DNA of 32,000 nucleotides from Candidatus Saccharimonadota bacterium (GCA_016700135.1 CP065004.1:1020001-1052000); one strand, 5' to 3'. Positions 3,183 to 20,134 are shown, counted from the first letter of the stretch. The notes: generated by a model not told the origin, from the letters alone. Translations and numbers: made by a program.

Positions 3183-3452
3183 CTAGACTTCTTCCTCCCG
3201 GACGACGGTGATGGTGTATTCTTTTGCTAAAACCAGTAGAGTTGCAAGGATCGCAAGAGGTGCTGATATAAGTGCTCCGATGATACCGAACGTCAACGGA
3301 AAGTCAAATATCTTTTTTCCTTTCTCGTCTTTAATGGTAATTTTTCGGATATTTCCCTGATGAATAAGATCCTTTACTGTTTCGACAACCAGTTCTCCGG
3401 TAACTTTTACCGTTTCCGTGACCTGTTTTTTTGTTGTTTTTTTCTTCGGCAT
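3183..3452 (-). CDS. DUF4342-like small protein
   Basis: MPKKKTTKKQ...GELVVETVKDLIHQGNIRKITIKDEKGKKIFDFPLTFGIIGALISAPLAILATL fits the DUF4342 pattern. The ATG lies 1 nt after the stop of the upstream gene. Confidence 0.55.
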   Translation of the reverse strand: MPKKKTTKKQVTETVKVTGELVVETVKDLIHQGNIRKITIKDEKGKKIFDFPLTFGIIGALISAPLAILATLLVLAKEYTITVVREEEV

Positions 3453-3453
3453 A

Positions 3454-4008
3454 TTATTTGTCCTTTCTGTTGATATATCCCAGTTTGTCGAGCACTTTCC
3501 CGACTGTTTCATTCGGTCCTGACGAATACGTGTCAATAATCACGTGATAGTATTCAGGACTAAAAAAATTATAATCCCCGTAAATGCGTTTCCATTCCTT
3601 AAAATTCCCTTCTTCTCGCTCTCTGATATACTGTTTAGCCTGTTCAATCGTGACATTGTCTCGGTTTGCGACACGGTCAATCCGTAAAGCATCGTTGTTA
3701 CATGTCAGAAGAATCCTGAGTGTATCTTTGCGATCCCGTGCCATAAAACCGGCGAGCCAGGCTTCAATAGCGATATTTCCTTTTTCAAGCAGATTTTTAG
3801 TCCTGTCATCGAGCTGGTGATGAAATTCGTCAGGAGCAAGACTTGCCAAAGGCTGTACGTATTCCTTTGCAAAATCCCGAAGAAGTTGACCTCCAGATGT
3901 GAAGGTCCATCCCAACGGTTCAAGATACGGTTTCAGAGCATTGTGCAAGGTATTTTTTCCTACTGCAACGCCTCCTGAAATGGTTATATTTCGATATTTA
4001 AGGTTCAT
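3454..4008 (-). CDS. P-loop kinase, cytidylate-kinase-like family
   Basis: Walker A ISGGVAVGKNT lies near the N-terminus when the start is taken at MNLKYRNITISGG (ATG 4008). Small nucleotide-kinase size. Confidence 0.5.
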   Translation of the reverse strand: MNLKYRNITISGGVAVGKNTLHNALKPYLEPLGWTFTSGGQLLRDFAKEYVQPLASLAPDEFHHQLDDRTKNLLEKGNIAIEAWLAGFMARDRKDTLRILLTCNNDALRIDRVANRDNVTIEQAKQYIREREEGNFKEWKRIYGDYNFFSPEYYHVIIDTYSSGPNETVGKVLDKLGYINRKDK

Positions 4009-13428: not shown

Positions 13429-13542
13429 TCACACATTCCTGTTCTCAAACACCCGGATGATCAATCCGGCTGTCAAAGACAGGAGCATCGTTGCCGATCC
13501 AAAAAACAGAATTGCTTTAACTGATTTTTCAAGGTCAGACAT
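13429..13542 (-). CDS. Small single-TM protein (37 aa), hypothetical
   Basis: MSDLEKSVKAILFFGSATMLLSLTAGLIIRVFENRNV. Preceded by AAGGGAG with a 5-nt spacer, one of the few strong SD sites in the window. Confidence 0.4.
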   Translation of the reverse strand: MSDLEKSVKAILFFGSATMLLSLTAGLIIRVFENRNV

Positions 13543-13637: not shown

Positions 13638-13827
13638 TGGACTCGAGAGGGCTCGAACCTCTGACCTTTCGGAGCTGCCCGCCGTGCAAATGTGTGGAAC
13701 CGAGAGGGCTCGAACCTCTGACCTTTCGGATGTAAGCCGAGTGCTCTACCAACTGAGCTACGGTTCCTCATTGCACTTTGGCAGGCGCGGTGTAAGCCGA
13801 GTGCTCTACCAACTGAGCTACGAGTCC
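13638..13827 (-). tRNA. tRNA-Val(UAC) gene interrupted at position 37/38 by a 117-nt insert that contains a second complete tRNA-Val(UAC)
   Basis: 5' part 13827-13791 reads GGACTCGTAGCTCAGTTGGTAGAGCACTCGGCTTACA. 3' part 13673-13638 reads TCCGAAAGGTCAGAGGTTCGAGCCCTCTCGAGTCCA. Joined, they give a 73-nt cloverleaf with a perfect acceptor stem GGACTCG/CGAGTCC. Confidence 0.6.
13695..13767 (-). tRNA. tRNA-Val(UAC), uninterrupted, nested in the insert of the outer tRNA-Val gene
   Basis: GGAACCGTAGCTCAGTTGGTAGAGCACTCGGCTTACATCCGAAAGGTCAGAGGTTCGAGCCCTCTCGGTTCCA. Has 7-bp acceptor, D, anticodon (loop CUUACAU) and T (TTCGAGC) arms. No encoded CCA. Confidence 0.9.
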
Positions 13828-13879
13828 TTCGTATGTCAATGAAGTGGGTCGACTTCGCTTTTGCTTCGTCGGACCGATG

Positions 13880-13952
13880 TGGGCGTGGAAGGAATCGAAC
13901 CTTCGACCTCGTTCTTATCAGGAACGCGTTCTAGCCACTGAACCACACGCCC
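13880..13952 (-). tRNA. tRNA-Ile(GAU)
   Basis: GGGCGTGTGGTTCAGTGGCTAGAACGCGTTCCTGATAAGAACGAGGTCGAAGGTTCGATTCCTTCCACGCCCA. All four arms pair, the anticodon loop is CUGAUAA, and no CCA is encoded. Confidence 0.9.
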
Positions 13953-13967
13953 AATTCTGAAAATACT

Positions 13968-13995
13968 AGTATAGCATTTTCATATCATATTCCAA
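13968..13995 (-). promoter_or_regulatory. Promoter of the tRNA cluster: TTGGAA, 16-nt spacer, extended -10 TGcTATACT
   Basis: Minus strand reads GTTGGAATATGATATGAAAATGCTATACTAGTATTTTCAGAATTGGGCGTG. The predicted +1 is about 9 nt before the tRNA-Ile 5' end. Confidence 0.5.
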
Positions 13996-14274
13996 CACGA
14001 ATTCGTGTTTGATTATTATAGCACACAGATCTTCATATTATAAATTGAATATATGATTATTACGGCGTCAGCATAATGAAATCAGAGATACGGTATTATT
14101 CTTCTTACAGTCTGAAAAGCTGACAAAAGTGTCATTGAAGCTGACAAAATTGTATGATAACATCATACTGTTTAGTATCGTAAATAAACGGTGGAATATG
14201 GTGAGAAAGTAGTGTATATTAAAAACTTCTCATTCTACAGTTGCTCCGTATTATTAATTTCTAAAAACATAATC

Positions 14275-15069
14275 ATGTTTGTTTCAATCATTACGGATTG
14301 TCGTGATTCCAATGAAATGGGTCGTCAGACCACTCGTGCTTCAGTTCTTTTCCCCGGCGCAAATATTGACGTCGTCGGTGTTGGCAATTTCAGCGAAATC
14401 GAGGCAGCCGGAAATCTTATTGATGTCATTGACGGTGCAACAGGCGGAGATGGCGTAGTCATGGTAAATGCAGCACCCCGTCACGGATCAGGCAAAAAAT
14501 ACCCTAACGGTACACCGTTCGGATTTTTCAAATATGCAAATAAAACTATCGTCTCCACAGTTGCAGGGGAAACGCTTTCCCTCGCTAAAAAATTCGGGAT
14601 AATCGATGAACTGAAAGTCACCGATTTGCCGACCGTCATTGATGCTTTTGTCAAAAAAGGTAAATTCGAAGCAGATGCCCAGCAGCGAACTGTTCTGACA
14701 CAGTTCAGAAGCTTTGAATATATGCCTTTCCTGGCAAAGTGGGTACATGAAGGTGAAGATGTTCCGGCAGAGGTCATGGCACTTGATGATATTCCCGAAG
14801 CTCCTCAGACTATCTGGTGGATCGACAACTTCGGTAACTCCAAAACAACCATGCTTCCTGATGAGATCGGTTTTGAACCGGGTAAAAAGATCAAGACAAA
14901 AGTCGGTGAATTCACTTGCTACAATCGCCTGAAAGATGTCCCGAACGGTGAGGCAGGCATGACGGTCGGAAGTTCCGGTTATCAGAACAAGAGATTTGTC
15001 GAGATCACGGTCCAGGGGAAGAGTGCAGCAAAAGAATTCGGTCTGACAACTGGAATGGAATTGATGTAA
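14275..15069 (+). CDS. DUF62 / SAM hydroxide adenosyltransferase (chlorinase-fluorinase superfamily)-like protein, divergent copy A
   Basis: N-terminal IITDCRDSNEMGRQ (compare TDFG..D.Y.G.MKG), VMVNAAPRHG (compare VDPGVG), IWWIDNFGNSKTT (compare ID.FGN.ITN) and MTVGSSGYQNKRFVEITVQGKSAAKEFG (compare GSSG.LEIA..GSAA). The start is set at MFVSIITDC. Confidence 0.6.
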   Translation: MFVSIITDCRDSNEMGRQTTRASVLFPGANIDVVGVGNFSEIEAAGNLIDVIDGATGGDGVVMVNAAPRHGSGKKYPNGTPFGFFKYANKTIVSTVAGETLSLAKKFGIIDELKVTDLPTVIDAFVKKGKFEADAQQRTVLTQFRSFEYMPFLAKWVHEGEDVPAEVMALDDIPEAPQTIWWIDNFGNSKTTMLPDEIGFEPGKKIKTKVGEFTCYNRLKDVPNGEAGMTVGSSGYQNKRFVEITVQGKSAAKEFGLTTGMELM

Positions 15070-15209: not shown

Positions 15210-16031
15210 ATGAAAAAACTCATTGTAGTCGCCGACTGGGCTGATGATACACTGACATGTCAGGAAATTCGTACCGCCGTTGAAGGATATTCGAATGAAC
15301 CGCAAAAAGTCCGTATTTCTTTTGTCTCCTCTACTCCGTCTACAATCCATACGTCATTTCTTTTGAGGCAGGTTGTTGAAACAGAAGAAAAATACGGCAG
15401 ACCTCTCGAAACCGTGATTTTGCAGAATACTGATCCCCGACTTCATTCGAAGACACCTTTACAAGGATCTCTCGGAGCTGAACTTGTCATTATCCGTTTG
15501 AAATCCGGTATTCACCTCCTAGGACCAAATTCAGGATATGATTATTCGATGCTTTTGGATAAAGTTGATGTTGTCTTTACGTATCCGGGTATGAATAAAG
15601 GCAGTCAGTTCCTTTCACGAGATCTGCATGCACGAATTGCGGCACACCTGATGGAAGCAATGCAGGATGATATGGAACTGGAAGAAGCACATATCGGTAT
15701 TCTCCCCGGCCTTCAGGGTGACTATATCGGACATGTTGACAATTATGGCAATATCAAGACGACCCTACATGAAACTATTTTTAAAGAAAAATATGCATAT
15801 GGAGATGAAATGAATGTCACCATAAACCGAGTTACGAAAAAAGTCCGCTATGTTGACAACTTCTTCGGTGGTAACCGTGGCGAACTGGTCATTTTTCCGG
15901 GTTCATCGGGTGACAGTAGAGATCCGTATCTTGAGATCTCCGTCTGGAGACACTTTGACGAAGAAGATCAAAGTACCGGAGCGGCAATTTTCAACAATGC
16001 CAGACCAGGCATGAAAGTCGTGGTAGAATAA
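15210..16031 (+). CDS. DUF62 / SAM hydroxide adenosyltransferase-like protein, divergent copy B
   Basis: LIVVADWADDTLTCQE, ILQNTDPRLH, LLGPNSGYDYSML (compare GPDNGLL), GHVDNYGNIKTT and VIFPGSSGDSRDPYLEISV. Confidence 0.6.
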   Translation: MKKLIVVADWADDTLTCQEIRTAVEGYSNEPQKVRISFVSSTPSTIHTSFLLRQVVETEEKYGRPLETVILQNTDPRLHSKTPLQGSLGAELVIIRLKSGIHLLGPNSGYDYSMLLDKVDVVFTYPGMNKGSQFLSRDLHARIAAHLMEAMQDDMELEEAHIGILPGLQGDYIGHVDNYGNIKTTLHETIFKEKYAYGDEMNVTINRVTKKVRYVDNFFGGNRGELVIFPGSSGDSRDPYLEISVWRHFDEEDQSTGAAIFNNARPGMKVVVE

Positions 16032-17240: not shown

Positions 17241-18738
<1,498 letters not shown>

Positions 18739-19050: not shown

Positions 19051-20134
19051 TCAACTGGATGTATGAGTTCCATACATATGGCACTCTTTAGGTAAAATAG
19101 ATAATAGGTAATCCATAGGTGAAATATTGTTCAGGCTTTTGTGAACTCGCTTTGTATTGTACCAGACGAGGTATTCAATAAGGTGACGATTGAATGATCC
19201 GATACCGGTCCACTTGGTATAGATGTAGGGGTTCATAAATTCTTCCTGGAGTGTTCTGTTTGCTCGCTCAATAAAGGCATTGATCTTGGGACATCTGGGG
19301 TAGATAAAGAGGTGTGGGATATTGTTTTCTTCCAGATAGTCATGGAAGTTTCCCAGATACTCGAGGCCGTTATCTGTTTGTATGGTTTTTATACCATCTT
19401 GTATTGGGTATACTAGTTCCAGTCTTCTCATAAAATCAGCACCGTTTCGGCTGTTGAGTTTTGAGTATCCGTAGGAGAACTGGAATTTGAGTTTGATGTC
19501 CACTGCATTGAAGACATACAGCTTGATTCCGTGTACAAACTTCGTGATGGTATCAATCTCAATGTATCCGGTATCTTCCACGCCAGGGAGACCGCTTGAC
19601 CTTCTGTCGGTACTTTACTTTCCGTTTTGCAAAGCCACTTGCTGGATTGTGATAGATCCGGTAGGTCTTGCGCTGCAGGTTGTGTCTTTTGATCACTTTT
19701 CCAATGGTTGACTCAGATATAGTTGAAATTCCTTCCTGTAGGCAATACTCATCAAGTAAGGGCTTGATCTTCTCCTTTCCCAAACAAAAGTATTGTTCTC
19801 GAATCTCTTTGATAAAGGATATGACCTTCAGGTGAGTCTCCATACGTCAGGGTGTCTTTGGCTTGGTTGTCTCTGGTATCAGGCTATCCAACTGCCCTTC
19901 TGAATCTCGCCGTCTCTTCCTCCATCGAAACAATGTCCTTCGTGATATCCCATATGCATCAACTGCAGCTTGTATCCCGTACTTCTCTGCAAATGTCAGA
20001 ACATCGTTTCTGATTTGTGCTACATCTGACTGATTGTAGTCTGATAGAGATCGTATCTTTTTCATAAGATCTCTATTGTACTGCCAGTCATAACTCCTAA
20101 TTACTCGAAGCTGATCTCCTCCCCATTTACTCAT
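19051..20134 (-). pseudogene. DDE (rve-type) transposase interrupted by one in-frame TGA and one frameshift
   Basis: Three ORF pieces: an HTH part (20134-19847), a middle part in the same frame after TGA (19849-19847), and the catalytic part (19581-19051) in a different frame. The catalytic part carries IEIDT, QTDNGLEY and IERANRTLQEEF as D, D, E candidates. Confidence 0.65.

Follow-up and report, generated by a model that had tools for sequence, protein, structure and literature searches.

What is a complete tRNA gene doing inside the anticodon loop of another tRNA gene with the same anticodon? This question is raised by a nest of two tRNA-Val(UAC) genes at positions 13638-13827 (minus strand) of the stretch CP065004.1:1020001-1052000, which was analysed at its full length of 32,000 nt and is called the window below. 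Coordinates are those of the whole window unless a related locus (L001, L002 and so on) is named. The answer we favour, with a probability of roughly 55%, is that a cassette with stalk-forming ends split the resident tRNA-Val gene and supplied a replacement for it. The inner gene would be the one that works and the outer gene a remnant kept similar to it by gene conversion, with the stalk probably keeping the halves in register.

Read along the minus strand, the nest begins with the outer 5' half (13791-13827; tRNA positions 1-37), which carries the acceptor strand GGACTCG, i.e., the type O of the resident gene as argued below. The 23-nt 5' arm of the stalk follows (13768-13790); it forms the left end of the cassette, and its first 11 nt (13780-13790) are the left-end motif CCGCGCCTGCC. 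The complete inner tRNA-Val(UAC) of 73 nt (13695-13767) is called by ARAGORN and scores 70.1 bits with the Rfam tRNA model. Its acceptor is of a second type, type I (GGAACCG/CGGTTCC), and it is presumed to be the working gene. The 21-nt 3' arm of the stalk (13674-13694) is the right end of the cassette, with the final 10 nt GGCGGGCAGC (13674-13683) at the place where relatives have GGCGGGCAGG. The outer 3' half (13638-13673; positions 38-73) closes the nest with the acceptor strand CGAGTCC and discriminator A. It is an orphan T-arm that lies in no standard tRNA call, as standard ARAGORN and Rfam report only the inner gene and a tRNA-Ile(GAU) at 13879-13952 here. CCA is encoded in neither copy.

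This nested layout had been proposed in a first-pass annotation, and all five of its segments proved right when the sequence was read again and the halves were compared. The insert measures 117 nt, 73 nt of tRNA and 44 nt of other sequence. Because the junctions have no sequence redundancy, the break falls unambiguously between A37 and U38. The canonical 37/38 position claimed for it was confirmed in this way and by ARAGORN, which reads the outer gene as tRNA-Val(tac) c[13637,13827], interrupted at position 38 by a 117-nt intron, when overlapping long introns are permitted. Many ARAGORN intron calls in tRNA clusters are artefacts that fuse neighbouring tRNA halves, and these were disregarded; the joined outer gene alone is called as tRNA-Val. 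Joined outer and inner copies agree at 69/73 positions, as had been noted, and the four mismatches (confined to positions 4, 5, 68 and 69) make up two compensatory acceptor pairs. A repeat search recovers the duplicated halves as direct repeats of 38-39 nt with 95% identity, 60 and 57 nt apart. The proposed pairing of the two flanks also held, but its length of about 13-15 bp was an underestimate: in the minimum-free-energy fold the stalk consists of 9 bp, an AAA bulge and 8 bp (about 17 bp in total), and the helix begins directly at the junction. The flank duplex energy is -24.2 kcal/mol compared with a median of -8.3 kcal/mol for the flanks of 111 tRNAs in related loci, and the folding of the 190-nt unit has a z-score of -3.39 against shuffles.

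The neighbouring ClpC-like protein has no identical entry on record; relatives were gathered through its close homologues, and synteny is kept among them. A search of relatives found the same nested layout at the syntenic locus of three independent related Candidatus Roizmanbacteria assemblies. The Val site is nested in L001 (ClpC-like protein with 94% amino acid identity to that of the window) and in L002 and L003 (82%); their junctions match those of the window, and they share its inner gene without a difference. In L004 and L035 (72% each), which form a sister clade, an uninterrupted tRNA-Val gene with the type-O acceptor GGACTCG/CGAGTCC is found at the same place. States differ within the more distant clade of L037, L038 and L039: the type-O genes of L038 and L039 are plain, that of L039 at the same site and with a different T-stem, and L037 has an inner-type gene (GGAACCG) followed by the homologous 3' flank CACTTATGGCACGGCGGGCAGG and an outer 3' half. 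The type-O gene is uninterrupted at the syntenic Ile-Val-ClpC site in L004, L035 and L038. Since sister lineages carry it intact at the same site, the outer halves are the resident gene. Among these close relatives, nested and plain, the cassette is therefore present or absent at one exact site, as is the case for insertion driven by a homing endonuclease. Plain and nested loci are intermingled in the tree of the neighbouring gene. A scan of a genome collection for a doubled Val anticodon arm returned the L001 contig only, plus two chance matches in coding sequence, and a nest with that exact doubled-arm pattern is rare among species representatives.

Similar structures recur at other tRNA genes. 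A metagenome scan gave 26 loci, of which about 14 distinct ones are nests. Val-in-Val nests are found at many loci and Ile(GAU)-in-Ile nests in L024, L028 and L037, together with nests of Leu(UAG) in L023, Lys(CUU) in L017 and Gly(UCC) in L032; the Ala(UGC) gene of L019 is flanked by a stalk, and broken Gly(GCC) and Arg(UCU) copies adjoin intact ones. Wherever the interrupted copy has a legible anticodon, the intact gene within or next to it carries the same one, and an orphan T-arm scan of the loci found no interrupted gene without an intact same-anticodon twin. The joined exons of a nest neither gain nor lose bases, and the insertions sit mostly in loops. In L024 (6793-6979, minus strand) the joined outer tRNA-Ile has the anticodon AAT and not GAT, with a compensatory 6:67 change relative to other outer-type genes, which could be decay or a change of function. 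A tRNA-Gln in L009 with stalk-like flanks was rejected as a nest for want of convincing outer Gln halves; the parse of the outer Val 3' half in L009 is likewise uncertain.

The ends of the cassettes recur as well. The 11-mer CCGCGCCTGCC stands directly after TTACA in L002, L009, L022 and L024, GGCGGGCAGG directly adjoins the 3' exon in L001, L002, L022, L024 and L037, and inserts of the form A/CCGCGCCTGCC...GGCGGGCAGG/T (slashes mark the junctions) are found in L002, L009, L022 and L024. A second set (L017, L019, L027 and L031) has the ends A/CCTGCCCGC(C)...GCGGGCAGG/. Many nest junctions show the terminal inverted repeats CCTGCCCGCC...GGCGGGCAGG, of which the window has the variant CCGCGCCTGCC...GGCGGGCAGC. 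The 10-mer GGCGGGCAGG/CCTGCCCGCC has 13 matches in about 350 kb, and 11 of these are at nest junctions. Only nests have strongly paired flanks (about -20 to -33 kcal/mol, compared with the median of -8.3), and the inner part of the stalk varies by lineage but still pairs, e.g., GTGCAA/TTGCAC versus CTTAG/CTAAG. The inner-type acceptor GGAACCG moves with the stalk into different outer genes, as seen in L024 and L037.

Outside tRNA loci, the end motifs are not enriched in the sequence examined, which consists of partial genomes. CCTGCC/GGCAGG occurs there at chance frequency, and a genome-wide repeat of the repetitive extragenic palindrome or miniature inverted-repeat transposable element kind was rejected on that ground. 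A scan of viral contigs with the 3' junction motif gave 19 chance matches in GC-rich coding sequence, none of them near a tRNA. An "empty" end motif, CCTGCCGGCGGGCAGG, is found in an intergenic region of L039 (8941-8962) with no recognisable adjoining tRNA gene. In addition, small hairpins recur in unrelated contigs (L037, L033, L009, L017 and L004) and are always embedded in tRNA-like debris, e.g., TCAGCC-NNN-GGCTGA in four contigs, GTCGAGTTTGACTCG, and TCGCCTCATCGGCGA followed by CCTGCCGAAGAGGCAGG. They have the look of a family of miniature insertion elements.

The related loci also point to a candidate enzyme. They contain five distinct GIY-YIG open reading frames (ORFs) of 59-91 aa that cover the catalytic domain only, all less than 400 nt from tRNA genes. 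In L002, at the locus studied here (1742-2140), a tRNA-Ile of the window type is intact to the T-loop, except that a GC hairpin stands where the anticodon arm should be; an 86-aa GIY-YIG ORF begins a few nucleotides after the broken T-loop and is followed by an intact tRNA-Ile of the other type. In L002, replacement by insertion can be seen directly at the locus itself. The same architecture of tRNA, GIY-YIG ORF and intact same-anticodon tRNA is found for Gly in L023 (12125-12495, minus strand). A nuclease gene lies within or beside the inserted segment in the related loci L002, L019, L021 and L023, and from these arrangements we infer a link between the process and small GIY-YIG nucleases.

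Relatives show outer copies that decay while the inner gene stays intact, an outcome that the first-pass annotation had named as one that would refute its proposal. In L001 the T-loop of the outer gene is replaced by 28 nt and C72 is changed to T, and the joined outer gene is no longer called by ARAGORN. The Val locus of L037 has lost the outer 5' half, and its remaining 3' half has a 32-nt insertion in the T-arm. The outer 3' half is absent in L032, L014, L034 and L031, and L021 and L027 have broken outer genes. Shells at several nested levels are found in L028 and for Leu in L023, and in some shells a GC hairpin stands in place of the entire anticodon arm. Taken together, these sequences show the outer halves to be dispensable and decaying in relatives.

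At several positions the outer gene of the window resembles the inner copy (the derived states A26 and C32, and the inner-type T-stem AGAGG/CCTCT), where the plain type-O genes of L004, L035 and L038 have G26, T32 and ACAGG/CCTGT. The outer genes of L001 and L002 share the D-loop GCTTACG(C/T)TGG, and that of the window carries the inner D-loop. Given the neighbouring-gene tree and the shared inner-type states, the simplest history would be that the inner gene repeatedly converted the outer halves but spared their acceptor ends. Such conversion would account for the 69/73 identity without selection on the outer gene, and the identity is, on this sequence comparison, best explained by it. The first-pass annotation had taken the zero drift outside the acceptor pairs as an argument against decay; the near-identity stands, but the argument is weakened by gene conversion from the inner copy. 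A comparison of L020 with L023, where tRNAs are 73-78% identical, inner Val genes agree at 73/75 positions and outer 5' halves are identical, is in support of recent recombination or transfer of the nest unit, although part of it reflects ascertainment by the search pattern.

The sequence of events we propose is as follows. The resident tRNA-Val(UAC) gene would have been split between A37 and U38 by a 117-bp cassette with GC-rich inverted ends, in a DNA-level event such as repair of a nuclease-induced break, homing or transposition. Nest and tRNA-Ile would share a transcript, from which RNase P and 3' processing would free the inner tRNA; after CCA is added, this tRNA would do the decoding. 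The stalk would keep the near-identical outer and inner halves in correct register, an RNase III-type enzyme may cut it, and the outer halves would be discarded. Insertions of this kind would survive only because of the replacement tRNA that they carry. Two transposition types were considered and set aside, an IS200/IS605-type insertion 3' of TTAC and a Helitron-like insertion between A and T, as the ends pair mutually and the cassette has no transposase.

Several observations weigh against this explanation. There is no target-site duplication at the window nest, and ORF and Pfam scans found no nuclease gene in the window. The explanation offers several candidate mechanisms of insertion (homing, break repair or transposition) and no account of how a cassette gains cargo that matches its target. 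Outer gene and stalk are 114/118 identical between the window and L002, compared with 74-82% DNA identity for neighbouring genes and 54-75% for intergenic DNA, a contrast that calls for gene conversion, a recent transfer or selective pressure on the stalk. Of the three changes on the branch of the window, two add to the base pairs of the stalk. Moreover, 9/13 outer genes are valid tRNAs after exact in-silico removal of the insertions. The outer gene of L017 has three insertions and yet valid exons, and the outer tRNA-Ile of L037 has five, with joined exons that equal the working gene of L038 base for base. The insertions bear small hairpins whose sequences recur. A view of the outer copies as dead genes needs precise insertions to be far commoner than substitutions, and the replacement model further requires some selection on the stalk. 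The L037 gene itself (tRNA-Ile(GAU), 3325-3640) contains two 15-nt D-loop hairpins, two hairpins at position 26, the stalk with an inner tRNA-Ile and a 33-nt T-loop insert, and its exon joins include GGTTCATCGGTAGAACGCTTTCC.

Some of these observations also speak for an RNA intron. According to that explanation, an unknown endonuclease cuts the stalk at its base, ligation joins the halves, and one transcript yields two functional tRNA-Val species; the small D-, T- and anticodon-loop hairpins of other outer genes would belong to the same intron class. We regard it as unlikely, but as the strongest of the rivals. Splicing would turn the outer gene into a perfect tRNA, and even where an outer gene has three to five precise insertions, its exons are flawless. 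Conservation is strong at the stalk ends, with an inner stalk that differs by lineage and keeps its pairing; it is about 97% for outer gene plus stalk and 54-82% in the surroundings. Alleles without the intron exist in sister lineages. In L022, outer and inner sequences differ around the join (GCGCUUACA/UCUCAAAGG), and the junction of a spliced outer tRNA would read GTTGCGCTTACATCTCAAAGGTC. Mini-III RNase prefers ACC^U (PMC4357697), and the short-end variants A/CCU...AGG/U match this preference at the stalk base. The window junction, however, reads ACCG/AGCU and not ACCU/AGGU; cleavage by Mini-III at ACC^U suits the short-end variants but was rejected for the window.

The intron explanation, which the first-pass annotation had favoured, is otherwise left without support at the junctions. 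A bulge-helix-bulge (BHB) motif consists of 3-nt bulges flanking a 4-bp helix and sets both cleavage sites. The first-pass annotation could draw no such motif, and an exhaustive scan of the 190 nt, with one mismatch permitted in the central helix, likewise found none with cuts at 37 and 154; the intron bases expected to pair with positions 32-35 are GGCA. A BHB intron was rejected on this basis. A group I intron, usually more than 200 nt with its core P3-P9, had already been judged impossible in so short an insert. This judgement holds, as 73 of the 117 nt are tRNA and no Rfam intron family matches even at E <= 10, by which other Rfam families were rejected as well. Cuts of the RNase III type leave two extra nucleotides and 3'-OH/5'-P ends, and trimming and a ligase would still be required. 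Splicing also does not predict that every interrupted gene has an intact same-anticodon twin. Furthermore, many lineages, the closest relative among them, have lost or broken outer genes, some outer genes have no anticodon loop as the stalk replaces the whole anticodon arm, and multi-level shells occur. A broader version, namely a tRNA-intron class of the candidate phyla radiation (CPR) that is hairpin-ended, neither BHB nor ribozyme, sits in anticodon, D- and T-loops, and depends on an uncharacterised endonuclease and ligase, with one member that houses a second tRNA, is in our judgement a shade less probable again.

It is improbable that the outer halves and stalk are kept not as a tRNA but as a tRNA-like frame, be it to present or insulate the inner precursor for processing or to serve as a decoy or regulator. 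In favour of such a role, the window and L002 share a conserved stalk and conserved outer halves, L001 combines a broken outer gene with a relaxed stalk, and anticodon-less tRNA-like shells with a GC hairpin for an anticodon arm recur. Against such a scaffold, shells are missing or truncated in many lineages that retain the inner tRNA, no shell architecture is conserved across loci, and plain genes work without a shell. Slightly more improbable is that a single accident, a local duplication or insertion, was followed by the usual decay of a pseudogene, with no dedicated element or mechanism involved. The near-identity of outer and inner copies in the window would fit it, but the same architecture and end motif recur in several tRNA species on many unrelated contigs, and GGAACCG travels with the stalk into different outer genes. 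The first-pass suggestion that an inserted copy disrupted the outer gene is the best fit, with a recurrent structured cassette in place of the accident. Mis-assembly of reads from two tRNA-Val alleles has a negligible chance of being right: 37-nt repeats can confuse assemblers, but the nest is present in four independent assemblies (the window, GCA_964394215.1 from NCBI and two Logan runs), and the same junctions, with lineage-specific substitutions, are found in assemblies of different samples made with different pipelines (the NCBI metagenome-assembled genome, the Logan runs and several Joint Genome Institute metagenomes). The alternatives that the first-pass annotation set out were the correct ones to weigh.

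How does a replacement cassette compare with known systems? In archaea, BHB introns occur at 37/38 and elsewhere, multiple and mobile introns are found in Thermoproteales, and there are split and tri-split tRNAs. The nests resemble these introns and disrupted tRNAs in the 37/38 site, in further D- and T-arm insertions and in insert ends that form a helix. They differ in the bacterial host, the lack of a BHB motif, an insert that is a full tRNA with the same anticodon, and the decay of many outer genes. The halves are collinear, on one strand and 117 nt apart, unlike those of split or permuted tRNA genes. There is evidence of mobility between tRNA genes for archaeal tRNA introns (PMC10714607).

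SegB of phage T4, a GIY-YIG homing nuclease encoded in a tRNA cluster, recognises a conserved T-loop motif and drives the inheritance or amplification of itself and the adjacent tRNA genes (PMC2330249, PMC13096335). The ORFs of L002 and L023, which start after a broken T-loop and precede an intact tRNA, are similar to this. However, the predicted proteins here are of 59-91 aa with a catalytic domain only, none is encoded in the window, and SegB yields replacement or tandem amplification and not an anticodon-loop nest with a hairpin stalk. Short stem-loop insertions in the rRNA genes of CPR bacteria belong to neither the group I nor the group II introns, and GIY-YIG proteins are encoded by some of them (PMC11270868). 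Intervening sequences excised by RNase III are likewise extended stem-loops in a structural RNA gene, as is the stalk of about 17 bp here. Fragmentation is tolerated in rRNA, whereas the insert here carries a replacement gene. A tRNA cut in the anticodon loop cannot decode, and tRNAs nicked there by colicins or PrrC are inactive. It is unlikely that the host tRNA is functional as unligated fragments.

Bacterial group I tRNA introns also interrupt the anticodon loop, but in the insert here only 44 nt are not tRNA, with neither a ribozyme core nor a matching Rfam family. Integrative elements with tRNA genes as their target resemble the nest in that insertion is tolerated since the element supplies the missing function. 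In contrast to the nest, they restore the 3' part of the gene only, are kilobases long, and have an integrase and direct repeats; the nest has a whole tRNA in a 117-bp unit with inverted ends and no att-type repeats. Nested tRNA genes are not described in the available literature that was searched, and a recurrent insertion by which a tRNA gene is split and a working copy of the same tRNA supplied is apparently undescribed.

The surroundings of the nest give some indication of its transcription. The tRNA-Ile(GAU) gene (13879-13952, minus strand; ARAGORN and Rfam) lies upstream of the nest and is of the inner type found within the tRNA-Ile nests of L024 and L037. Further upstream, two sigma-70-like promoter matches with a TG-extended -10 (13968-14044, minus strand), which rest on consensus match only, are a probable promoter of the tRNA-Ile and nested tRNA-Val. 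Because these promoter-like sites precede tRNA-Ile, a joint unit is plausible, and the two are probably in one transcription unit. Another promoter-like site lies downstream of the nest. Window and L001 can be aligned across the promoter region. Between its two promoter-like sites the window has a perfect palindrome of 16 nt, AACACGAATTCGTGTT (13994-14009); at its place L001 and L002 have the diverged, non-palindromic AACACGAAATAGTGTT. The Ile-Val spacer (13830-13878) contains a 7-bp GC-rich hairpin (GGTCGAC...GTCGACC) and has 2 differences in 52 nt from L001, compared with 81-86% identity for other intergenic DNA.

Among the protein genes, the ClpC-like neighbour places the host, by homology, in Candidatus Roizmanbacteria of the Microgenomates, within the CPR. 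The record CAYMVU010000014.1 (L001/L007) is titled "uncultured Gammaproteobacteria bacterium", and its gene content and closest relatives are those of CPR bacteria (Roizmanbacteria-like); the label is probably a taxonomic error. Downstream of the nest, an ORF for a small membrane protein (13542-13246) contains TGA in frame (13429-13431, minus strand) where L001 has TGG. The 97-aa ORF is thereby divided into parts of 37 and 59 aa, which could reflect a pseudogene, recoding or an error of sequencing. Adjacent paralogues with a SAM hydroxide adenosyltransferase C-terminal domain (14191-15069 and 15210-16031) are conserved as a pair in relatives. At 17241-18737 and 19051-20134 lie a solitary 16S rRNA gene (bacterial 16S model), which has no 23S or tRNA genes attached, and, about 300 nt upstream of it, IS3-like transposase ORFs with HTH and rve domains. 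The window also holds housekeeping genes and type IV pilus genes. When the ORFs of at least 80 aa in the 32-kb window were scanned against Pfam, no match to an RNA ligase, splicing endonuclease or GIY-YIG domain was found.

If the outer genes were spliced after all, this would be a new bacterial RNA-processing pathway. If the replacement explanation is true, selfish DNA invades single-copy essential tRNA genes in streamlined genomes without any need for splicing. It would explain the rapid turnover of two tRNA-Val and tRNA-Ile lineages among close relatives, and would leave behind tRNA-like debris that standard tRNA finders miss or mis-call. It would bear on tRNA annotation in the CPR, on the role of the abundant small GIY-YIG proteins beside tRNA genes, and on debates over the origin of split and intron-containing tRNA genes.

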